A stretch of 64,000 nt of DNA from an uncultured Bacilli bacterium (GCA_934086485.1 CAKOIF010000006.1:3932-67931); one strand, 5' to 3'. Numbered from the stretch's first letter, positions 37,030 through 64,000 are shown. The notes: generated from the sequence alone by a model not told the origin. Made by a program: numbers and translations.

Positions 37030-38580
37030 CTAACTTGCTGTGTAAACATCATTATATGTACCACTGCCTGATAACTTTGCTTTAGATGATAGAGAAACGA
37101 CAGGGCGAGCGCCATATGCACCAGTCACAGTAGCGTAGTCCAAATCACCCGATGAAGAAACAAGGAACCCAAAAGCACCATAAATACTGGAAATAGCAGG
37201 CGACCCCGACCAATAATTTTGGTTTGTATACAAATAATATGAACTGTTGCTTGTATTATATACTCCTCCTGCCATTGCTACTTCATCCGCTGTTATTAAT
37301 CCTACTGGGTAGGTTAATGCCTTATTTCCTATACTACTTCCTTTTGATGTAAATTTATCACTTTCTGTTGGACAAGTTAATATTGGTTTTTTATTACTAT
37401 TTAATCTTACATTTGCTCCATAGAAATATGTTGTGCTAGTACTCATACTTCCACTTATTTCTCCTGGGGTTCCACTACTACTTGTTGTTGCACTTCGATC
37501 GTTACAAAATATTTGATCCGCCACTAAACTTTTTGTCGTTGCATCTATTTCCAATGTTGTTGTTTTATACCAATTATCTATTGCTGTTTTTATTGTACTT
37601 GCGGTGCTAGTTCCGTGTTGTGCACTTGCTGTATACATATAACCTACATACTCTGCTTTATTATAACTACTATTAAAGGTATAAGTTGTCGCATTTATTT
37701 GTGTTCCTGTTCCTGTCATTACTGTCGCTGTACTACTTGTTGGAGCCGTTGTACCAGAGTATATCATCCTTATACTTCCATCGCCATTAATTCTGATTAT
37801 TCTCCAGTACATATCTTTATCTCCTTCTTTTCCAAATTTTACCCAGTTATTATTTACTGCCCCCCTAAAGTAATATGACTTCATTCCAGTTGATGCAGTA
37901 TAATCATCATCAGCTTTATATAATCCTTTTTCACTTGCTGTTGTTACTTTACTAAAATCTGGAGTCGTTTCATTTACTGTATTATTTGCTAAAATTGTTT
38001 CCCATCCTTTTTTCTCTAAATCTATTACATCAGAAACCACTTTATTTCCTGCACTATCTTTAATCCATAAATAATACGTTCCTTCTGTTGTTATTGTAGT
38101 ACTTAAATTATAAGATATTCCACTTATTGAGGTCCAACTTGTTGGTTCAGTGCTGTTACTTGTACTTATTCCATAGCCAGATAGTTCTATATTATCAGTA
38201 AGTATTGCAGTTATTGTTGTGTCATTTATAATTAGATTGGATATAACTGGCTTTTCTGTATCAATTATCTTATCAAAATATAGTGAACACCTATCACTAC
38301 CGATAAAAGAGAAACTTACTGTACCTGAAGTACTATCATAGTTTAATACTTTACCATTATTTTCACAAATAGTCTTTTCTTCATTTAAAACATAATTACC
38401 TTTAGGTATTGCATCTGAACTTATATATTCTCCTGATTCACCTTTTACCATTATTGCTAAATTATTTTTCTTCGGTATGTATTTATTTTTAGGTTTATTA
38501 TATATTTTATTTACAAATAAAATACCTCCAATTAAAATTACTAATGATGTTAAAATTATAATTACCTTTTTATTTTTCAT
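37030..38580 (-). CDS. Membrane-anchored surface protein, hypervariable-C-terminus family (member 1)
   Basis: N-terminal signal anchor. Modules are shared with 47392 (KTICENNGKV...GSDRCS) and 61689 (EKPVISNL...GTYYLWIKDSAGNK). C-terminus NYWSGSPA...[variable]...GARPVVSL. Confidence 0.7.
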   Translation of the reverse strand: MKNKKVIIILTSLVILIGGILFVNKIYNKPKNKYIPKKNNLAIMVKGESGEYISSDAIPKGNYVLNEEKTICENNGKVLNYDSTSGTVSFSFIGSDRCSLYFDKIIDTEKPVISNLIINDTTITAILTDNIELSGYGISTSNSTEPTSWTSISGISYNLSTTITTEGTYYLWIKDSAGNKVVSDVIDLEKKGWETILANNTVNETTPDFSKVTTASEKGLYKADDDYTASTGMKSYYFRGAVNNNWVKFGKEGDKDMYWRIIRINGDGSIRMIYSGTTAPTSSTATVMTGTGTQINATTYTFNSSYNKAEYVGYMYTASAQHGTSTASTIKTAIDNWYKTTTLEIDATTKSLVADQIFCNDRSATTSSSGTPGEISGSMSTSTTYFYGANVRLNSNKKPILTCPTESDKFTSKGSSIGNKALTYPVGLITADEVAMAGGVYNTSNSSYYLYTNQNYWSGSPAISSIYGAFGFLVSSSGDLDYATVTGAYGARPVVSLSSKAKLSGSGTYNDVYTAS

Positions 38581-38800
38581 AACCTACTCCAATTCCGCTT
38601 AAATACTGGAGTACATTTTCCTAGATTATAATCATTTAGGAAAATTGCATCTCAATTTTATGGGAAAAGGACTAGAAATCTAATCAAAAAAATGCTAAAA
38701 TTAGGATAGAAATAGCATAAATACTAGGATTGATTTTCCTATATGATTATACTTTATGAAAGACTATTCCTTATAAACACTGGGTTTGTGAGACTTTTAA
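38581..38800 (-). promoter_or_regulatory. Conserved upstream module L1 of the surface-protein family
   Basis: Shares ordered blocks with 48712-48905 and 63530-63735: ACAAAC-N5-GTTTAT, TTTC(A/G)TAAAGTATAA, GAAAAT-N6-CCNAGTATTTA (twice), CCTTTTCCC(A/G)TAAAAT and TTCCTAAATGNTTATAAT. Confidence 0.6.
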
Positions 38801-38845: not shown

Positions 38846-40351
38846 CTACTCCACAGTTTTAGTAATGATATTAATTTTATCATTTAGTTTTTTATTTTCC
38901 TCTTTTAAAGAATTATTTTCTTCTTTTAAAGTATTATAATTATCTAAAAGTTCATTATACTTATCGGTGATTTCATCATATTTTTCATTAATATCATCAA
39001 TAATATCAGTTTGATTTTTAATATTTTCATATTCTTTTTCAATATTATTTTTTAAAATATTAATATTTTTTTCATTAGCATAAATTTTAATTATACTATT
39101 ATCTCTAAAGTTATAATTATACACTTTATTATGCTTTAAATTATCGACTAAATCATCAAATATATTTTTAGCATTTACTCCATATTGATGTAAAATAATT
39201 CTATAAACGTAAGCATTTTCTTCAGTATGTGATGTAACAAAATCTGGGTATGTTTCTACTTCAATTTTAATATTATCTAAAGTATTATCAATTACAAATT
39301 CATAATGAGTATTTGTATCAATTAAAAGATTATCTTGCATCTTTACATTAAACTCACTTTTTGTAGTTTTAAACTTTGGAGAAATGCTATTTACATAGTT
39401 AATTTTAGATACCTCAATTGAAAATAATCCAGAACCTATTCCAAATATGGAAAGTGATGCAATTAAAGTAATAAGCATTCTTTTGAAAGGCACTTTCTTA
39501 CTAAATAATAAGTCAAATAAAAATTCTATAGTTAAAATATTTAAGAAAATAGTTGATAATGAAATAAGAATTAAGCCAATGTATGTAAGTCCATTAAAGG
39601 CAAAATATAGTATTATAATAAGTCCTATAAAAAATATAATTAAGGTAACTAGAAATGGAAATGTAAAGCAAGCTATAAAAAATTTAACAAAAACAATTAA
39701 AATATTAGAAAATAAATTAATAAATGAATAATTTTTATTTTCATTTCTATCTTTTTCTTTAATAGGTTTACTTTCCTTTACCTCTTTTGCAAATTTTAAA
39801 TCATTATCTTTTTTTAAATCCATTTTGTCTAAAAAACCTATTTTAAATATATATATCATTACTATAATAAATAAAGCAACATAAGCAAAGTCAAATATAA
39901 ATTCAAAGAAATTTGCCACAAAAATTGTAAAATCATTTTGACTAACGCTTGTTATTAAATTAGTTACTTTATCACTTAATAAGTTAACTGGTAACTTTAA
40001 TATTAATAATGCTAAAAAAGTAAACATCATAACTAAAAAACATTTTGTATTATCAAGAAGTGTATTATTAACAATAAAGTTATAAGTATTTTTTACAAAA
40101 CTAAAGAAACTATCAATTACATTTTTATCTTTATTTTCAGTATTATTAATATCTACCTCATCATTTGTAAGACTATCTAAAGAAACATTAAATATTTTAC
40201 ATATAGCAAGTAGCTTGTCCATTTCTGGGTATGTTTGCCCACTTTCCCATTTTGATACAGATTGTCTTGATACATCAAGTGATGCTGCCAAGTCTTCTTG
40301 ACTCATCTTATTTTCTTTTCTAAGTTTTACTAACTTTTCACTAAAATTCAT
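38846..40351 (-). CDS. Membrane-bound XRE-family HTH regulator with a C-terminal coiled coil
   Basis: N-terminal HTH_3 KLRKENKMSQEDLAASLDVSRQSVSKWESGQTYP, several TM helices, an extracytoplasmic domain, and a heptad-rich tail. Confidence 0.75.
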   Translation of the reverse strand: MNFSEKLVKLRKENKMSQEDLAASLDVSRQSVSKWESGQTYPEMDKLLAICKIFNVSLDSLTNDEVDINNTENKDKNVIDSFFSFVKNTYNFIVNNTLLDNTKCFLVMMFTFLALLILKLPVNLLSDKVTNLITSVSQNDFTIFVANFFEFIFDFAYVALFIIVMIYIFKIGFLDKMDLKKDNDLKFAKEVKESKPIKEKDRNENKNYSFINLFSNILIVFVKFFIACFTFPFLVTLIIFFIGLIIILYFAFNGLTYIGLILISLSTIFLNILTIEFLFDLLFSKKVPFKRMLITLIASLSIFGIGSGLFSIEVSKINYVNSISPKFKTTKSEFNVKMQDNLLIDTNTHYEFVIDNTLDNIKIEVETYPDFVTSHTEENAYVYRIILHQYGVNAKNIFDDLVDNLKHNKVYNYNFRDNSIIKIYANEKNINILKNNIEKEYENIKNQTDIIDDINEKYDEITDKYNELLDNYNTLKEENNSLKEENKKLNDKINIITKTVE

Positions 40352-45006: not shown

Positions 45007-45858
45007 CTATTTTCGAGGCATATTTTTTAAATATTCTGTCTTAATATAATCATCAGTTATGTGAGTATATATTTCAGTCGAAGAAAGTGATGCGTGGCCT
45101 AAAAGTTCCTGTACGCTTTTAAGCGGGCACCCATTTTTTAACATATGTGTAGCAAAAGTATGTCTAAATGTATGAGGACTAACTTTAACTTTTAAACACG
45201 CTTTATCAATAATATTTTTGATAATAAGTTCAATTCCTCTTACAGTTATCTGTTTTCCTTTATTATTTAAAACTAAATACTCACTACTAAACTGTCTAGC
45301 ATTTAAATAATCATTAATTGCTTTAAGTGAATGATTGTTAAAGAAGACTATTCTTTCTTTACTACCCTTACCCATAACTTTAATACTATTATCCGAAAAG
45401 TTTATGTCCTTTATTTTAATATTTTTAAGTTCACTAACTCTTATTCCCGTAGCATATAAAAGTTCAATAATCATTTTATTTCTAAGCCCTAAAGCATCCT
45501 CATTATCAATACTATCAATTACTTTACGCATATCTTCATAGCTTAAAAAAGTTGGCAATTTCTTTTCTAATTTTGGATTACTAATTAGTTTAAAATAATT
45601 TACATTTACATAATTATTATCAAGTAAATAGTTATAAAAACATCTTAATGCAGATAATACAGCACTAATACTTTTATTTGATAAATTATCTATATATTTT
45701 AAATAATTCATTATTATATCTTTATTAATATTTTGATAATCTATATTATTATTTTTGCAATATGAAATAAATTCATTTACGTGAATTATATATTCCTTAA
45801 TTGTATATTCTGAGTAGTTTAATTCATATTTTAGGTATTCATTATATTTTTCTATCAT
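45007..45858 (-). CDS. Tyrosine recombinase, XerC/XerD-like
   Basis: ATGIRVSEL, HTFRHTFATHML and LGHASLSSTEIYTH catalytic motifs; 283 aa. Confidence 0.85.
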   Translation of the reverse strand: MIEKYNEYLKYELNYSEYTIKEYIIHVNEFISYCKNNNIDYQNINKDIIMNYLKYIDNLSNKSISAVLSALRCFYNYLLDNNYVNVNYFKLISNPKLEKKLPTFLSYEDMRKVIDSIDNEDALGLRNKMIIELLYATGIRVSELKNIKIKDINFSDNSIKVMGKGSKERIVFFNNHSLKAINDYLNARQFSSEYLVLNNKGKQITVRGIELIIKNIIDKACLKVKVSPHTFRHTFATHMLKNGCPLKSVQELLGHASLSSTEIYTHITDDYIKTEYLKNMPRK

Positions 45859-47391: not shown

Positions 47392-48711
47392 TTATATTCC
47401 TATCCTATATGGATCTACCTTACTTCCATTACCACTTACTACATATACATTAGATTTTAGATATAAGACTGGCCTGATGGAGTTGCCATACGAAGCCGAG
47501 GAGGAGGTGGAATAGGCAAACGAAGCCAACATGTTGCTGAGATAGCCGGGACTGATAGCGTTAAGAGGAGCCGAAGAAGAATATGCACTCATTGTCCATT
47601 CAAAACCATTTGAAAATAACCAATTTTTGTCTGATGAACTTTGAGGACTTCCATCACTTCCTAATACCCCACTGAAGTCTTCGATTGCATAACCCCAATC
47701 ACTAGCATACATGAGTCCTATTTTAGATGAAGTTGTTGCATGAGTTGCTATTTCTTGTGTATAATAATTTGCTGCAGTTTTATATGTTGAATTTCCTGCT
47801 CCTACATTAAAGTATACATCTTCAATCATTTTGCCATAATAGTCAGTTATATCTATTCCATCTGCTGAATAATCACACGTTCCTTTTGCTGATGTAGAAT
47901 ATGAATAGCAATAACTATCACATGATGATTGTTTTCCTAAATAACATGTATTTAATAAATTTTGAATATTACTTCCCATCCATGTTGAATTACTTCCATA
48001 TTTTATAGATCCAATTGAATCATTTCTTATTATTTTTACTCTGTTTTCTGCATTTGCACATCCACTTGTTAAACATACTGGAATATTTCCAATTATTCTC
48101 CATAGTTCATCATTAAACCATACATAATTATCTGGATTTTTGCCTTGATATCTTTTACCATTTTCATTTCTTGTGGCTTTATTATTTACTACTGTAGAAA
48201 GTAGTTCTTCATTACTTGGCGTTTTTGGAGTAAATGTAATATTGCATGATGAATTTGTTTTTGAAATATTATCAATTATAATACCATTAATTTTATAATC
48301 CCATGTACCACCAGTAATGCCATCACAATTAGTAATGCTTTTTGTATATCCCCCTAAAAGGTAATCTGGATTTGGAACATTAATTGTGAAATCTGGTATC
48401 TTTTCATAATATAAATAAACACTACATCTATCAGAACCTAATGTTTGATAAGCTAGTTTATTACCCACTATTGAGACTTTACCACCGTTTTCACATATGG
48501 TCTTGTCTTCATCAATATGATAATTTGTTAAATCACTTGGAATAGTATCTACTGAAGTATAACTTGTTTCTCCATCATTTTTAATATTAAATGCATAAGA
48601 CTTTTTTATAATACTTTTATTATCATCCTTTCTTGGATAAAAAATTATAGATAGAATTACCACTACAAATAATGAGAATAAAATGTATGCATATTTCCGA
48701 TTTTTGCCCAT
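47392..48711 (-). CDS. Membrane-anchored surface protein, hypervariable-C-terminus family (member 3)
   Basis: Signal anchor, an N-terminal module shared with member 1, and a C-terminal region shared with member 2. Confidence 0.75.
   Translation of the reverse strand: MGKNRKYAYILFSLFVVVILSIIFYPRKDDNKSIIKKSYAFNIKNDGETSYTSVDTIPSDLTNYHIDEDKTICENGGKVSIVGNKLAYQTLGSDRCSVYLYYEKIPDFTINVPNPDYLLGGYTKSITNCDGITGGTWDYKINGIIIDNISKTNSSCNITFTPKTPSNEELLSTVVNNKATRNENGKRYQGKNPDNYVWFNDELWRIIGNIPVCLTSGCANAENRVKIIRNDSIGSIKYGSNSTWMGSNIQNLLNTCYLGKQSSCDSYCYSYSTSAKGTCDYSADGIDITDYYGKMIEDVYFNVGAGNSTYKTAANYYTQEIATHATTSSKIGLMYASDWGYAIEDFSGVLGSDGSPQSSSDKNWLFSNGFEWTMSAYSSSAPLNAISPGYLSNMLASFAYSTSSSASYGNSIRPVLYLKSNVYVVSGNGSKVDPYRIGI
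47476..47580 (-). repeat. VR-like hypervariable patch of member 3
   Basis: Encodes SSSAPLNAISPGYLSNMLASFAYSTSSSASYGNSI. Carries a 30-nt insertion relative to member 2 and the TR-like copy. About 14% A on the coding strand. Confidence 0.6.
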
Positions 48712-48905
48712 AACTTCGCCTTCCTTTTTTCGTAAATTATATACATTTAGGAATTTTTATAGGCGATTTTATGGGAAAAGGGGTAGCAAAAATTAAAAAA
48801 ATTTGGTAAAATATATACATAAGGTAGGAAAATACTGGGATATATTTTCTCAAAAGTATATAATTTATGAAAAATAATGTTAGGTAAACGCTGAGTTTGT
48901 AGGAC
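48712..48905 (-). promoter_or_regulatory. Conserved upstream module L2 of the surface-protein family
   Basis: Has the same ordered blocks as L1 and L3, but the second GAAAAT-N6-CCNAGTATTT box is replaced by the RBS. Confidence 0.55.
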
Positions 48906-55941: not shown

Positions 55942-55956
55942 TACTTTCACTTCCTT
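55928..55956. repeat. 29-nt direct repeat, right copy (covers the rbgA start region)
   Basis: ATATTTTCATTCATTACTTTCACTTCCTT matches 58867-58895 at 27 of 29 positions. Confidence 0.75.
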
Positions 55957-56959
55957 ATTCATTATCACTATTTTCATTTAAATATTTATTATAAAATTCA
56001 TCCATTGAAGAAATATATTTTTGATCTTGTATAACCCTAAATTTTTCATATTCTTTTTCCGCTTTTTCTACTGCTTCCATATGAGATATACTGCCACTAT
56101 TATTTAATATTTCTTTTCTTCTAAATTTTAATAAATCATCAGTTGCATCTATCCAATCTTTCATTGTCATTACATGTCTTTGTTTTGCTTCATCTTCTGC
56201 AAAAACTAAAAACATATTTGTTAAATCTTTTAAATTATTCATTTCTTCTTCAGTTAAATAATTTTTAGCAACAGCTACATCATATTTATATATTAAACCA
56301 TCTGGAGAATTTTTCCAATTAGTTAATCCCATATGCTCTTTATCTGAGTTTGCTCTACTATATATTAATTCGGCAGCAGTATGCCCACTTATAGCGAAAT
56401 GTAATTTATTTTGAACTATTTTAAAAAAAGTGTATGCTTCTTCAGATTTAGGACTGTAATCAGTTGAAGTTGCAATAAATAAATCAGTTATTTTTTGATA
56501 TGCCATTCTTTCACTTACTCTAATTGTTTTAATACGTTCTAATAATTCATTAAAATATTTTGTATCATATTTATTTCCATTTATAAAACGTTCATCATTT
56601 AATGCAAATCCCTTTGTCATATATTCTTTTAGAATTTTTGTAGCCCATATTCTAAATTCTGTTGCTTTTTTAGAATTAATTCTATAACCAACAGCAATTA
56701 TAGCATCTAAACTATAAATAGTTGTGTTATAGTTTTTCCCATCATCGGCAGTTAACGAGCATTTCTCGGTAACTGAATTTTTATCTAATTCTTTTTCCTC
56801 AAATATATGTTTCAAGTGTAAACTTATATTATCTGTAGAACATTCAAAAACCTTTGACATACCTTTTTGTGATAACCATAAAGTTTCGTCTTTATAAATA
56901 GCATCTACTATAATATTACCTTCACTATTTTTATATATAATTAGTTTATTATCCTCCAT
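55955..56959 (-). CDS. RhuM-family protein
   Basis: WLSQKGMSKVF...IYSLDAIIAVGYRINSKKATEFRIWATKILKEYMTKGFALNDERF is typical of the Virulence_RhuM family; 334 aa. Confidence 0.8.
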   Translation of the reverse strand: MEDNKLIIYKNSEGNIIVDAIYKDETLWLSQKGMSKVFECSTDNISLHLKHIFEEKELDKNSVTEKCSLTADDGKNYNTTIYSLDAIIAVGYRINSKKATEFRIWATKILKEYMTKGFALNDERFINGNKYDTKYFNELLERIKTIRVSERMAYQKITDLFIATSTDYSPKSEEAYTFFKIVQNKLHFAISGHTAAELIYSRANSDKEHMGLTNWKNSPDGLIYKYDVAVAKNYLTEEEMNNLKDLTNMFLVFAEDEAKQRHVMTMKDWIDATDDLLKFRRKEILNNSGSISHMEAVEKAEKEYEKFRVIQDQKYISSMDEFYNKYLNENSDNE

Positions 56960-58232: not shown

Positions 58233-58841
58233 CTAGAAACATATTACATAATGCATTTTATTTTGAACCTTTTTAAAAAACTTAATTGTTGTCGGAGATT
58301 TTTTATCATAATCCACACTTGTCGCATAAATATCAGTAACTTTTTGATAAAAGCGTCTTTCTGATAATCTTATTTCTCTTATTTCGGCAAGTAAAGAATC
58401 ATAATAATCTTCATCAAAGAACGTACCATTTGCCATTCTCTTTTTATCTATTATATAACCTTTTTTTGAATACTCTTTTAATATATAAGTTGCCCACCTT
58501 CTAAATTGGATGGCTCTATCTGAGTTTACTTTGTAACCTACTGAAATAACTATATCTAAATTATAAAAGAGTACATTCCTAGTAATTTCTCTATTGCCTT
58601 CTTTTTGAACTAGTGCAAAATTTGCACTAGTTGAATCTTCATTAAATTCAAGCTCAGAATATATGTTTTTAATATGCTTAGTAACTACAGTTCTATCAAC
58701 ATTAAAAAGTTCTCCAATAGCTTTCTGTGTTAGCCATAAATCACCATCTTCAAATCTAACTTGAATTCCCCTATCATGTGTTTGTCTTTCGAATATTAGA
58801 AATTCCGCACTACTGCTTCTTATCATTAAATCTTTTGCCAT
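58233..58841 (-). pseudogene. C-terminally truncated RhuM-family gene
   Basis: Aligns to residues ~1-200 of 55955..56959 and stops at ...KMHYVICF, whereas the full-length copy continues for ~130 more aa. A RhuM C-terminal scrap (VEYEKFRVIQD) lies at ~57020-57090. Confidence 0.65.
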
Positions 58842-58859
58842 TTTCATCACCTCCAGCAT

Positions 58860-59346: not shown

Positions 59347-60795
59347 CTATATTCCTCTTACACGGGAAAAACGAAATTTTTCTTTTGGCACATTGCAATC
59401 TATTATTTGTCTATATTTTGGACCAAGATATTTTTTAAAATCGTCATATATACCCTTTTTAAGATTATATCTCTCTTTATATTGTAGGCCATACATATAA
59501 GGATAGTAAGAAGATTTATCCATTAATCCTAAATCACTTGCTCTACCTACCTTTATAGTTCCTATGCCATTGTTGGTTATATAAATAACTGTTCCATAAC
59601 ACATATAAATTGCAAGTATTCCATTACTATAATATTTATTAAAGAAAACAGCATTATCTAAAAAATCATCTAATCTCATATATTTTTCATAAAAATTGCT
59701 TTCAGAGGTAAAAAATTCATCAACTTCGGTTTTTTGACTATCATTTATATATTTTCTTAAAAAATGAATAAATTTTCCATCATTGCTTAATTTGATAACA
59801 AATTCCGGATCATTACTATACACATTTCTTGTTATAAAAATTTCATAATTATCATTTTCTTGGCTTTCATTCTTATCATTAGCATTTTCAAAATTCAACT
59901 TGACTTTAAAATCCAATTTTCTAAGACTTGATAATGTTTCTTTGTTTAATTTATTTTCTTTTACAAGTTGTAACTTTGCTAAAGCATCCTTTAATACATC
60001 TAAAGAAGTTTGAATTTGCTCATTATCAGTAAATTTTAATTCTTTCATTCTAGCATTAAAGTTTACTAGTATAGCATTATAAGTTTCATCAAGTTCTTTA
60101 TCTAATGCCTCTTTTTGCATAACCACAGTCATTATTTCACAGCGAAGTCTATTAGCACCATCTTGTAAACTAATTTTATCATCAATGATATCATTTAAAA
60201 TAACTTTTTTCATATTAAGTATTTTTTCTAAAGTACTCGCATCTATAGTTATATCTAGTGATTGAACTACATTATTCAATGTATTTTCAATATTTTCATA
60301 ATTTTTCTTTATAACATTTACTTTTTTAATAAATTCATCAATGCAATCTACTATATTATTATCATACTTTTTTAGAAACTTTTCAGGAATATTATTCAAA
60401 ACAGTTTTTCCATATTCTGATAGTACACTATTAATTTTTGCTAAAATGTTGTTGTAAGCTGAATTTAAAATAACCTTATTAGAAATATAAGCAAACGAAT
60501 TTACAAGTTCATTAATTTTATTAACACATTCATATTCAGCACTTCCAGATTCATAAACTTTTTTACTTACAAATTTTTGCAATTTTTCTTTTAAACTATT
60601 GAAGTATGTTAAATCATAATTCGTGGATTTACCTTTTAAAACAGCATAAGCAGCATTTACTTTTTTCATCATTTCATCACTTCCACCCATATCTGGATGA
60701 TATTTTTTTGAAAGTTCTAAATATTTTTTTCTTAAATTTTCCTCAGTAAAAGTACCTGTAAAACCAAATAAATTTAATGATTCACTATAATTCAT
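59347..60795 (-). CDS. Orphan J-domain protein (482 aa) with an unknown C-terminal region
   Basis: N-terminal J domain LRKKYLELSKKYHPDMGGSDEMMKKVNAAYAVL (HPD present). The remaining ~410 aa have no recognised motif. Confidence 0.7.
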   Translation of the reverse strand: MNYSESLNLFGFTGTFTEENLRKKYLELSKKYHPDMGGSDEMMKKVNAAYAVLKGKSTNYDLTYFNSLKEKLQKFVSKKVYESGSAEYECVNKINELVNSFAYISNKVILNSAYNNILAKINSVLSEYGKTVLNNIPEKFLKKYDNNIVDCIDEFIKKVNVIKKNYENIENTLNNVVQSLDITIDASTLEKILNMKKVILNDIIDDKISLQDGANRLRCEIMTVVMQKEALDKELDETYNAILVNFNARMKELKFTDNEQIQTSLDVLKDALAKLQLVKENKLNKETLSSLRKLDFKVKLNFENANDKNESQENDNYEIFITRNVYSNDPEFVIKLSNDGKFIHFLRKYINDSQKTEVDEFFTSESNFYEKYMRLDDFLDNAVFFNKYYSNGILAIYMCYGTVIYITNNGIGTIKVGRASDLGLMDKSSYYPYMYGLQYKERYNLKKGIYDDFKKYLGPKYRQIIDCNVPKEKFRFSRVRGI

Positions 60796-61688: not shown

Positions 61689-63529
61689 TTATCCAATATG
61701 ATATGGATCTGTAGAGGTTCCTGTTCCTCCAACTATTTTTAGGATACTAGAATCTAGATAAAATGTTGGTCGGACCGCAAACTGGCTAAGGCGGACATAA
61801 CTATCAGAGTAAACACGACCAGCCGAACGCAAACCAGAAGCACCATCCGAATACGAGCCATACGGGGTAAGTAACCATTCATCTTTATTAGACCCCCAAC
61901 TAGTTACTTGTGATGTAAATACCCAATCATTATTTTTACAATCACTATATGATGAACTGTTCCAATTATATAATGCTTTAGCTCTACAATTTGCCTTATA
62001 GTTGTACTACCACCAACTGTTGCATATCCATAATCGCTTGGATACATTAGTCCTACTTTAGCAAATACATATTCCGGATTACCACTATATAAATTTTGTA
62101 GTGTCCCACTTGTAGCATACGGACTTCTTTCTGCTTTATAATAGTTTTCTGTTGTTATTGTTTGACAATAATATTTACTTGATGAAGTTGCATTTTCCCC
62201 TCCTAAATGCCATTTTGCATTTACTATTGTACTGGATAATTTACTATTTACTCCACTTGTGGCAAGAAGTGTACTTAAGTAAGTTCCATTAAGTTCTGTT
62301 TTCAATGTTGCTGTAGACCAGTCATTAAGATTTTTACCGCTAGTTTGTGTTTGATTCCAATACTTACCACTTGTTCCTCCATAGTTATTTGTATCAAGTA
62401 TTTTTAACAAATTTTTTTTACCTGCACTAGTTGTTCCATTTGAGGAATATTCTTCTTTAAATAAACCTATTATTCTAAATAATAATGAAGATGAAGAACA
62501 AGTACCTTCTTTATTACTATCTAAGCATATATAATTATTTGGATCTGCTCCTTCATACCTTATACCATTCTCATTAAAAATATCTGTATTATTTGCTACC
62601 ATTAATGTCTCAAATGATGTCCCGAGTGATATTGTAAACTCTTTTGTAGTTTTGTTATTAGCACTATCTTTTACCCATAAATAATATGTTCCTTCAGCAT
62701 TTTGTGTAAAGGAAATTGTTTGACTTGTTCCTGAAAAGCTATTATATTCTTCAGGCTCTATAGTACTACTTTCACTTACTCCATAAAATGCAAGTGATAT
62801 GTTATCTGTAGCGGTAAATGTAACTGTAGTATCGTTAACACTTAACGAAAAAATAACTGGTGCTTCACTATCACTATTTTTATCAGCATATACATTACAT
62901 ATTGCTTTTTTGGTTGTTAATACTACAATGTTTCTCCCAACTATTGAAACTGTTGCTCCATTCGTACAACTTGTTTTACTTGTATTTATGGTGTAATAAT
63001 AACCTGTTTCATATAATGGTAATTGGCCCATTTGATTATAATTTTTATCATCAGTATTGCCTAATTCTTGTTGAACAAAAAGGTTTACTTCATAATCATC
63101 AATATAACCATCAATTGCATCAAAGTATACTTTACATTTTCCTTTCTTTGTGGCATCTACATAAAACTTTTGATTTTCATATTTTTCTATTGTTATTCCT
63201 GTATCACATACTGTCTTTGAACTTTGATATGTGTATGAAGTTGCACTTGGCACATAATAAGAAAGTGCATATGTACCAAGACCTACTCCATTATCATTTT
63301 TATTTTCTCTATATACTTTGATTGATACATCTGATGAATCTATTAAAGCTACTCCGGAGATTATTAATTTTGAACTCTTATTTTGATAAAATGAATATGA
63401 TATTAAAATTATACTAGAAAGTATTGATAAAATAATTATTGTTAATATTGTTAAGCATCTTTCTTTATTATTACTATAATACTCCTTAAAATTATTTACT
63501 AATTTTTTCAAACCTCTCACACCTTCCAA
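61689..63529 (-). pseudogene. Surface protein, hypervariable-C-terminus family (member 4), with a 1-nt frameshift near 62000
   Basis: The track ORF ends in out-of-frame sequence after ...YGYATVGGSTT. Shifting frame at ~61998-62002 restores KANCRAKALYNWNSSSYSDCKNNDWVFTSQ...EWLLTPYGS...AVRPTFYLDSSILKIVGGTGTSTDPYHIG* (stop at 61689-61691). The start is either TTG 63529 or TTG 63511. Confidence 0.7.
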
Positions 63530-63735
63530 ACCTAGGTAAATACTGGCATCTATTTTCGCAAATTATAAACATTTAGGAAAACGGCATATCGATTTTACGG
63601 GAAAAGGACTAGAAATTCACTCAAAAAAATGCTAGAATTAGATTAGAAATAGCGTAAATACTAGGATAGATTTTCTTAAATGTTTATACTTTACGAAAGA
63701 CAAAGCCTTATAAACACTGGGTTTATGAGGTTTTT
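63530..63735 (-). promoter_or_regulatory. Conserved upstream module L3 of the surface-protein family
   Basis: Collinear with L1 block by block, including both GAAAAT-N6-CCNAGTATTTA boxes. Confidence 0.6.
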
Positions 63736-63789: not shown

Positions 63790-64000
63790 TTAACCAATAT
63801 GATATGGATTTGGTGATGTTCCTGTTCCTCCGACTATTTTTAACATACTAGAATCCAAATAAAATGTTGGTCTAACAATATATTTACCGCTTGCTACTGA
63901 ACCAGCAGTTCCATTCATAGCAGATACGCTTCCAGTCCAACCTAGCATCGCTGCACCATATGAGGTGACCGAATCTGGTGAAATCATCCATTCTCCACCA
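63790..64000 (-). CDS. Surface protein, hypervariable-C-terminus family (member 5), C-terminal fragment cut by window end
   Basis: GEWMISPDS...[variable]...YIVRPTFYLDSSMLKIVGGTGTSPNPYHIG*. The 3' ~90 nt are closely similar to 61689-61780. Confidence 0.7.
   Translation of the reverse strand, partial: GGEWMISPDSVTSYGAAMLGWTGSVSAMNGTAGSVASGKYIVRPTFYLDSSMLKIVGGTGTSPNPYHIG

Follow-up and report, generated by a model that had tools for sequence, protein, structure and literature searches.

Three genes for putative surface proteins in the 64,000-nt stretch of DNA analyzed here (the window) are each preceded by a similar intergenic region, which raises the question of what this repeated sequence does for the genes behind it. 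The three regions (38581-38800, 48712-48905, and 63530-63735) were collinear, with a mean column identity of 76% in the alignment, and boxes (a) to (f), which an earlier note had described in them, were all found in place, as was the lack of box (f) in the copy at 48712. The ACAAAC/GTTTAT palindrome reported for box (a) was likewise present, but the arms are complementary (at least 5 of 6 positions) in no more than 9 of the 45 copies; comparison of the 45 shows that what is generally conserved in this region is nnGT(A/G)TTTA. The boxes had been read as duplicated promoter-plus-operator units or as a structured leader, shared by the paralogs and possibly recognized by a neighboring membrane-bound XRE-type regulator. 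The observation behind this reading was confirmed, and the interpretation was partly supported: a shared module and a leader able to pair both hold, while the tandem promoters, the operators, and the link to the XRE protein fail.

The window belongs to the assembly of an uncultured human-gut bacterium (1.34 Mb in 30 contigs; 25.7% G+C). A DNA search of this genome with the 220-nt module returned more than 40 copies at 70 to 94% identity, a similarity far beyond chance. In three places, the middle of the query (positions 40 to 184) matched the opposite strand while both ends matched the same strand, which is the signature of an inverted internal segment. A census of the genome by BLAST and then by profile HMM yielded 46 elements, 45 of which adjoin a long open reading frame (ORF); these 45 modules lie 20 to 110 nt upstream of an ORF of 300 to 730 amino acids (aa), except where the gene is cut by a contig end. 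The proposal of a regulatory module common to the paralogs was thereby extended from three genes to 45 modules in front of 45 family genes. The remaining match (contig C8, 57545-57689) is an orphan half-element, consisting of the right site and part of the inner segment, with no adjoining family gene.

Conservation in relatives was assessed with a sequence-only covariance model of the 145-bp element, a search that the earlier note had proposed. The module was detected in 9 of 21 congeners, and human-gut metagenome contigs carried it as well. Under strict filters, the covariance model had no match in 60 other genera of the family, each represented by one genome, and a 17-mer from the inner segment returned single chance matches only among species-representative genomes. 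In an Rfam scan of the whole window, no family reached its gathering score, so that no curated leader RNA or riboswitch was matched.

All copies of the module are in rigid register. Read toward the gene, the order is box a, left site, inner segment, right site, box f, ribosome-binding site (RBS), and start codon, and in all intact copies the two sites, which are inverted relative to each other and start exactly 118 bp apart, flank a 91-bp inner segment, so that the whole element measures 145 bp. Each site comprises 27 bp, with a 9-nt arm (TTTCnnAAA), a 9-nt center, and an inverted arm (TTTnnGAAA). The two sites correspond to boxes (b) and (e), which are mutually reverse-complementary; they look like direct duplicates, though they are inverted repeats, because each site is itself palindromic. 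The GAAAAT of the earlier description is an arm of a site, and its CCAGTATTT is box c or box f. Box a ends 13 nt before the left site, the inner segment begins with box c 8 nt beyond that site, and box f lies 8 nt beyond the right site. The sequence nnGT(A/G)TTTA thus recurs at three fixed places per module (box a, 35/45; box c, 42/45; box f, 38/45). The features of the three modules in the window, with their predicted promoters and assigned states, are as follows.

38617..38761, minus strand: putative invertible element of module 1, 145 bp, assigned OFF; profile match at C6:42548-42692, in register with the other copies
38773..38789, minus strand: module 1 box a, fixed in place (folding and census of copies)
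38735..38761, minus strand: module 1 left site, TTTCATAAA-GTATAATCA-TATAGGAAA, equal to box (b) (core matching)
38718..38728, minus strand: module 1 box c, CCTAGTATTTA, which together with the GGAAAAT arm is box (c), inside the invertible segment (42/45 copies, fixed offset)
Inside the inner segment, minus strand: module 1 box d
38673..38701, plus strand: module 1 predicted promoter, TAGAAA, 17 nt, and a TG-preceded TAAAAT, directed away from the gene (promoter scan)
38617..38643, minus strand: module 1 right site, TTTCCTAAA-TGATTATAA-TCTAGGAAA, equal to box (e) (core matching)
38600..38610, minus strand: module 1 box f, TCCAGTATTTA, which together with the GGAAAAT arm is box (f), fixed in place (38/45 copies)
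38590-38587 and 38580, minus strand: module 1 GGAG and ATG
48728..48872, minus strand: putative invertible element of module 2, assigned OFF; a divergent copy without box f (profile search)
~48784-48812, plus strand: module 2 predicted promoter, TAGCAA, 17 nt, and TAAAAT (motif scan)
63554..63698, minus strand: putative invertible element of module 3, assigned OFF (profile search)
~63610-63638, plus strand: module 3 predicted promoter (motif scan)

The centers of the sites behaved as crossover cores. In module 1, the 7-nt core of the left site (TATAATC) is the reverse complement of the right-site core, and the same relation was found in 36 of 38 modules of this genome, in 26 of 28 modules from five congeners, and in 41 of 47 modules on metagenome contigs; in random module pairs, the cores matched in 22%. 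Five core types occur in the genome itself (TATAAAC, TATATAC, TATAATC, CATAAAC, and CATATAC), and those of relatives and metagenomes, which include TATATAG, TATGTAG, TAGGTAG, CTTATAC, TATAAAG, and CATATAG, bring the total to more than 10. Matched cores of this kind are expected at such sites because strand exchange by a tyrosine recombinase requires them.

Both orientations of the inner segment were present among the paralogs. Eight modules have the stretch between their sites turned around with respect to the fixed flanks. In these copies, the two sites have exchanged their inner arms and kept their outer arms in place, which puts the crossover in the center of the site. The module at C6:69614 and its neighbor at C6:71697 have opposite orientations and identical inner segments. 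Two modules in the ON orientation (contig C1, 99427-99571, and contig C5, 51025-51165) have a decayed left site, and one of them has a shortened inner segment; these may be locked ON.

A protein-guided scan of metagenome contigs, including several named human-gut assemblies, gave 80 loci with 47 modules, 34 assigned OFF and 12 ON. When these were clustered by gene identity, two groups contained mixed orientation states. The flipped contigs come from relatives whose gene products are approximately 70 to 76% identical to those of the window, and not from the window's own loci. In the first group, contigs from two human-gut assemblies (L163, OLHG01005406.1, and L164, OIYS01001046.1) show no difference in the 400 nt compared upstream or the 1500 nt compared downstream; between the two cores, one sequence is the exact reverse complement of the other. 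In the second group, L182 is flipped relative to L181 and L183, but the comparison is less clean: the downstream match between L183 and L182 covers only 1251 of 1500 nt, and L181 differs in its upstream flank. Between positions 150 and 340 of L181 (OLHA01005283.1), the right side and the gene match L182 and L183, and the DNA to the left is the leader of another family gene in reverse; here, sites belonging to two different modules appear to have recombined, giving a larger inversion or a promoter common to two divergent genes. On a congener contig (G015:C37, L137), long ORFs lie on either side of one element.

Taken with the site anatomy and the matched cores, these arrangements make it very probable that each module is an invertible promoter switch (inverton) and not a set of tandem promoters. 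A tyrosine recombinase would exchange strands within the 7-nt core and flip the segment between the sites. A promoter of the sigma-70 type with an extended -10 element would then either face the gene, which would be ON and transcribed, or face away from it, leaving the gene OFF and silent. With a separate switch for each of 45 genes, a population could display many combinations of their products.

Such a promoter was predicted at a fixed position and on one strand of the inner segment, with a -35 element TAGAAA or TTGAAA, a 17-nt spacer, and an extended -10 element (TGnTAAAAT, TGnTAGAAT, or TGGTTAAAT). The promoter scan finds about three promoter-like sites per 400 nt by chance in DNA of 26% G+C, and as these motifs are so common in AT-rich DNA, the argument depends entirely on their conserved position and strand. 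The exact motif TGnT[AT]nAAT was found in 42 of the 45 inner segments and is kept in the alignment of the divergent copies from congeners. At a reversed locus (L022), the promoter scan found the same box pointing at the gene, and when the best gene-ward promoters of the two arrangements were compared across the genome, the proposed ON arrangement had the higher score in 37 of 45 modules and tied in 6. In the assembly, this promoter is directed away from the gene in 37 of the 45 modules, including all three in the window, and toward it in 8. Judged by these consensus motifs, 37 genes would be OFF and 8 ON; the latter would include the next family gene in the window, listed here.

63790..64000, minus strand: last 70 codons (C-terminal end) of the next family gene, whose switch, at C6:69614-69758 just beyond the window, is assigned ON

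Which enzyme would invert the segments was approached through the distribution of recombinases. The genome encodes six.

C9:30282-31388 (G000): 369-aa tyrosine recombinase; one ortholog (56 to 94% identity) in 9 of 9 module-bearing congeners and in 0 of 12 others
45007..45858, minus strand: XerC-like tyrosine recombinase, 283 aa; orthologs in 20 of 21 congeners with or without modules, the exception being a genome that is 85% complete
Contig C1: XerD-like recombinase; in most congeners, including those without modules
Elsewhere: 423-aa tyrosine integrase; patchy distribution among congeners
Elsewhere: two large serine recombinases; patchy distribution, multicopy in some genomes

Of these, only the 369-aa enzyme, which is single-copy, co-occurs with the module. 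The presence of the 423-aa integrase does not track the module, nor does that of the two large serine recombinases, and the XerC-like and XerD-like genes are uninformative as markers, being found in nearly all congeners. The 369-aa protein keeps the catalytic R, H-x-x-R, H, and Y in alignment with Xer proteins, and the nearest folds to its structural model are the Tn1549 and lambda integrases (PDB 6emz, 5j0n, and 1z1g). Its modeled N-terminal domain has three strands and a helix at the place where the Tn1549, Tn916, and lambda enzymes carry their arm-binding domain; a Pfam search of this N terminus returned no family and no arm-binding match. Unlike the Tn1549/Tn916 and lambda integrases, which integrate and excise mobile DNA, the candidate is single-copy, conserved within a subclade, and located among housekeeping genes: its gene lies between three uncharacterized ORFs and valS, in a region with Hsp20, ABC-transporter, and SufS/NifU genes, a context that appears to be housekeeping and not prophage. 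No module was found within 1.5 to 8 kb of it. Outside the genus, only homologs at 33 to 41% identity were found, in 7 of 60 other genera (G075, G065, G090, G069, G055, G024, and G077); this module is absent from those seven genomes, which may have switch families of their own with a different sequence. Given its distribution and fold, the 369-aa recombinase of the Tn916/lambda type is a reasonably likely invertase, with the qualification that a correlation confined to one subclade may reflect a single evolutionary event.

The principal competitor for this role is the housekeeping XerC/XerD pair. No dedicated recombinase adjoins the modules, and the XerC-like gene lies between modules 1 and 2, 6 kb from the former; the XerD-like gene is 3.5 kb from another module (C1:34583). 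In addition, Xer-like enzymes have been proposed or shown to act as invertases in mycoplasmas and Ureaplasma (PMC2268961 and PMC3599477). A weak lead is that the module arms, TTTCGCAAA, look like the left arm of the genome's best dif-like site, but both arms of a module site are of one type and dif has two different arms. This dif-like site (G000:C1:127967-127994; TCTTCGCATAA-TATATA-TTATGTTAACT) was found with what we take to be the dif sequence of Bacillus subtilis. Both Xer genes also occur in congeners and genera that lack the module, so that their distribution is uninformative either way, and the XerC-like protein, present in 20 of 21 congeners regardless of modules, looks housekeeping. 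Catalysis by the Xer pair in place of the 369-aa recombinase is accordingly the less probable assignment, unlikely but worth keeping in mind.

A second reading accepts the recombination sites and takes the opposite orientations for old, fixed rearrangements in modules that no longer switch. The sequences compared are assembled consensus sequences, and the two ON copies with decayed left sites (C1:99427 and C5:51025) would fit such a history. It is difficult to reconcile, however, with inner segments that are 100% identical between oppositely oriented paralogs, or with two contigs (L163 and L164) that differ solely by the inversion across 2 kb. Both sites and their matched cores, moreover, persist across six genomes and in metagenomes, something that requires continuing selection for recombination. 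Loss of switching throughout the family is therefore very improbable.

The original proposal, tandem promoters with operators read by a transcription factor, retains still less probability and is scarcely tenable. In its favor are the two TATAAT-like boxes of modules 1 and 3, each with GAAAAT-N6-CCAGTATTT behind it, and the XRE gene, which ends 46 nt upstream of module 1.

38846..40351, minus strand: membrane-bound XRE-type protein, linked to the family by one adjacency alone

The supposed duplicate units are the two inverted 27-bp recombination sites, boxes (b) and (e), and the two TATAAT-like boxes are their crossover cores. These boxes vary across modules and yet match the partner site of the same module in the proportions given above, and neither has a usable -35 element at 16 to 18 nt. 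One congener has the core TAGGTAG, which bears no likeness to TATAAT and, by its letters, cannot be a -10 box. The segment between the boxes occurs inverted inside otherwise identical DNA, and the conserved promoter within it lies on the opposite strand in the window's three copies. The XRE protein, for its part, has a single full-length copy that adjoins only 1 of the 45 modules, and nothing ties it to the family. It has an N-terminal helix-turn-helix, three to four hydrophobic segments (around residues 100-125, 140-175, and 210-255), and a coiled-coil-like C-terminal region, an architecture that is predicted to make it a membrane-tethered regulator. Equally implausible is a miniature mobile element spread in front of the genes, which would fit a short sequence with terminal inverted repeats in 45 copies but not its constant distance from the start codon of one gene family, the conserved fixed flanks (boxes a and f) beyond the repeats, the absence of a visible target-site duplication in the copies examined, or its inversion in place within identical flanks.

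Inversion of the promoter may not be the only level at which the switches act. Folding agreed with the earlier note that AGGAAAAT and ATTTTCCT segments are able to pair in a leader RNA, and the inverton gives this pairing a possible role. In the predicted fold of the ON leader, a long hairpin forms when box c, now inverted, pairs with box f over the palindromic right site, and the GGAG stays free; at L022, this hairpin has a folding energy of -25.6 kcal/mol (z = -4.7). In the OFF arrangement, box f pairs with the GGAG itself (RBS, 38587-38590 in module 1). With the other state of each module built by in silico reversal of the natural segment, the mean predicted probability that the RBS is unpaired was 0.84 for ON versus 0.32 for OFF (43 modules), and it was higher for ON than for OFF in 39 of the 43, counts that are not independent trials because the paralogs are related. 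From these folds we infer that pairing of the inverted box c with box f in the ON state would free an RBS otherwise sequestered by box f. Module 2, which lacks box f, is an exception to this scheme.

Box a may have a separate function. On the strand that would be read from an OFF-oriented promoter, G-U pairs extend its palindrome to a hairpin of 9 to 14 bp that is followed by a U-rich tract; in 39 of 45 modules, the predicted stability of this hairpin exceeds that of its complement. In 22 of 45, a hairpin of -5 kcal/mol or lower was predicted together with a U-rich tail. Box a is thus probably, and with moderate confidence on the strength of these folds, a terminator for outward transcripts of the OFF switch. 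Additionally or alternatively, the recombinase could use the boxes as arm-type sites.

These elements can be combined into a more speculative scheme, which we put forward tentatively as a possibility and consider doubtful in its entirety, namely, a double lock with a single domesticated mobile-element integrase in charge. On inversion, the promoter would come to face the gene, and box c would at the same time arrive in inverted form. Every transcript of the OFF arrangement would have its RBS kept closed by box f, and box a would end those directed outward. The N-terminal domain of the Tn916/lambda-type recombinase might, in addition, recognize the three GT(A/G)TTTA boxes as arm-type sites. If this were true, a single enzyme would govern 45 independent and tightly silenced switches in a 1.3-Mb genome.

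The proteins encoded behind the switches belong to one family, of which three genes lie in the window along with the C-terminal end listed above.

37030..38580, minus strand: family gene 1, 516 aa; N-terminal membrane helix, then Ig-like beta-sandwich domains (low-confidence model)
47392..48711, minus strand: family gene 2, 439 aa
61904..63529, minus strand: family gene 3, likely start TTG at 63511; frame broken near the 3' end

All three window products have an N-terminal hydrophobic helix. Pfam and NCBIfam searches with these three proteins returned no family, and the family profile had no match among PDB sequences. Language-model neighbors of the family are unnamed Bacillota clusters, some with fn3 or DUF6273 domains. 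The low-confidence AlphaFold model of gene 1 (pLDDT 58) has the membrane helix and, after it, Ig-like sandwiches that weakly match adhesin BIg, Ig, and FN3 domains. Across the genome, the 45 products are mosaics that join one of three N-terminal types (membrane anchors of two kinds or an ..ASFAYFG-type signal) to one of two C-terminal types (..RPTFYLDSS..GGTGTS..PYHIG and ..RPV.SLSS..G.GTY..VY.V.), and this shuffling among paralogs suggests recombination within the family. The N-terminal type ending in ..(V/I)TASFAYFGSF was seen, for instance, in genes C1:58411, C7:38570, and C12:22276; its ending resembles what we take to be the signal peptides of SipW-dependent proteins of the TasA/camelysin type. 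No lipobox cysteine was found in the family N termini, and the products are not lipoproteins. On this modest evidence, they are likely membrane-anchored or secreted surface proteins. The genome has five genes for transpeptidase-domain proteins (penicillin-binding proteins), which indicates that the organism is walled.

Two other observations were made in the window. The ORF of gene 3, which encodes 541 aa, ends in an aberrant tail (61700-61990, minus strand), and the conserved C terminus (..VRPTFYLDSSILKIVGGTGTSTDPYHIG) continues in another frame; the break could reflect a frameshifted pseudogene, a sequencing error, or a slippage site. Two RhuM-family genes (55955-56959 and 58233-58859, minus strand), one full length and one a half-domain, lie near a gene for a DnaJ-domain protein (59347-60795).

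Approximately 5% of this 1.3-Mb genome is devoted to a single switchable surface-protein family, which suggests that host immunity or phages exert strong pressure on this very reduced commensal. The module itself, compact and stereotyped, with 27-bp sites, covarying cores, and a single candidate invertase, offers a convenient system in which to ask how one recombinase would serve dozens of sites, how the identity of the cores would prevent exchange between different switches, and whether the structure of the leader RNA provides a translational lock on top of DNA inversion. The case also holds a lesson for annotation: in AT-rich intergenic repeats, apparent "tandem TATAAT boxes" can prove to be recombination cores. 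The switch modules also explain the assembly breaks at these loci in this group.

Several known systems share parts of this design. In Escherichia coli, fimS is a single invertible promoter switch acted on by the tyrosine recombinases FimB and FimE, whose genes are adjacent to it. The present modules likewise have a short invertible segment, with a predicted promoter that would give ON/OFF control of surface proteins, but none of them has an adjacent dedicated recombinase. In Clostridioides difficile, the unlinked tyrosine recombinase RecV acts on several switches (cwpV and flagellar), fewer than ten in all, some of which operate through leader RNA. That organism is also a member of the Bacillota with short invertible elements upstream of surface-related genes; its switches have unrelated sequences and targets, whereas one large paralogous family would be controlled here. 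Bacteroides fragilis has dispersed promoter invertons with related inverted repeats and an unlinked recombinase, and its main global enzyme, Mpi, is a serine recombinase. Many dispersed invertons with related repeats are common to both organisms, and in the present genome too they would be flipped by an unlinked recombinase and give combinatorial surface variation in a gut commensal. Unlike the case of Mpi, the site architecture and the codistributed gene here point to a tyrosine recombinase, and the density of 45 switches in 1.34 Mb is much higher than that in B. fragilis. The capsule and surface-protein invertons of B. fragilis and their globally acting recombinases are also cited in PMC2268961.

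The closest likeness is to the mpl (P35) lipoprotein family of Mycoplasma penetrans, in which each of 38 genes has its own invertible promoter (Horino et al. 2003, via PMC2268961). This likeness is one of design, as judged from the published description of mpl in that source: in both cases, a multigene family of surface proteins (38 genes there, 45 here) has one short invertible promoter per gene, the genes lie in clusters dispersed over a small genome, and the invertases are proposed to be tyrosine recombinases. The host here is, in contrast, a walled human-gut member of the Bacillota with 26% G+C and the standard genetic code. Its products are not lipoproteins but have a membrane helix or an ..ASFAYFG-type signal, its sites are 27-bp composites, and its candidate invertase is of the Tn916/lambda type and not Xer-like. 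Invertons are widespread in gut bacteria (PMC11602134), and the type of switch described here is already known; its design matches the one that was found independently in M. penetrans, and what sets this genome apart is the density, with 45 switches in 1.34 Mb, and the possible translational lock.
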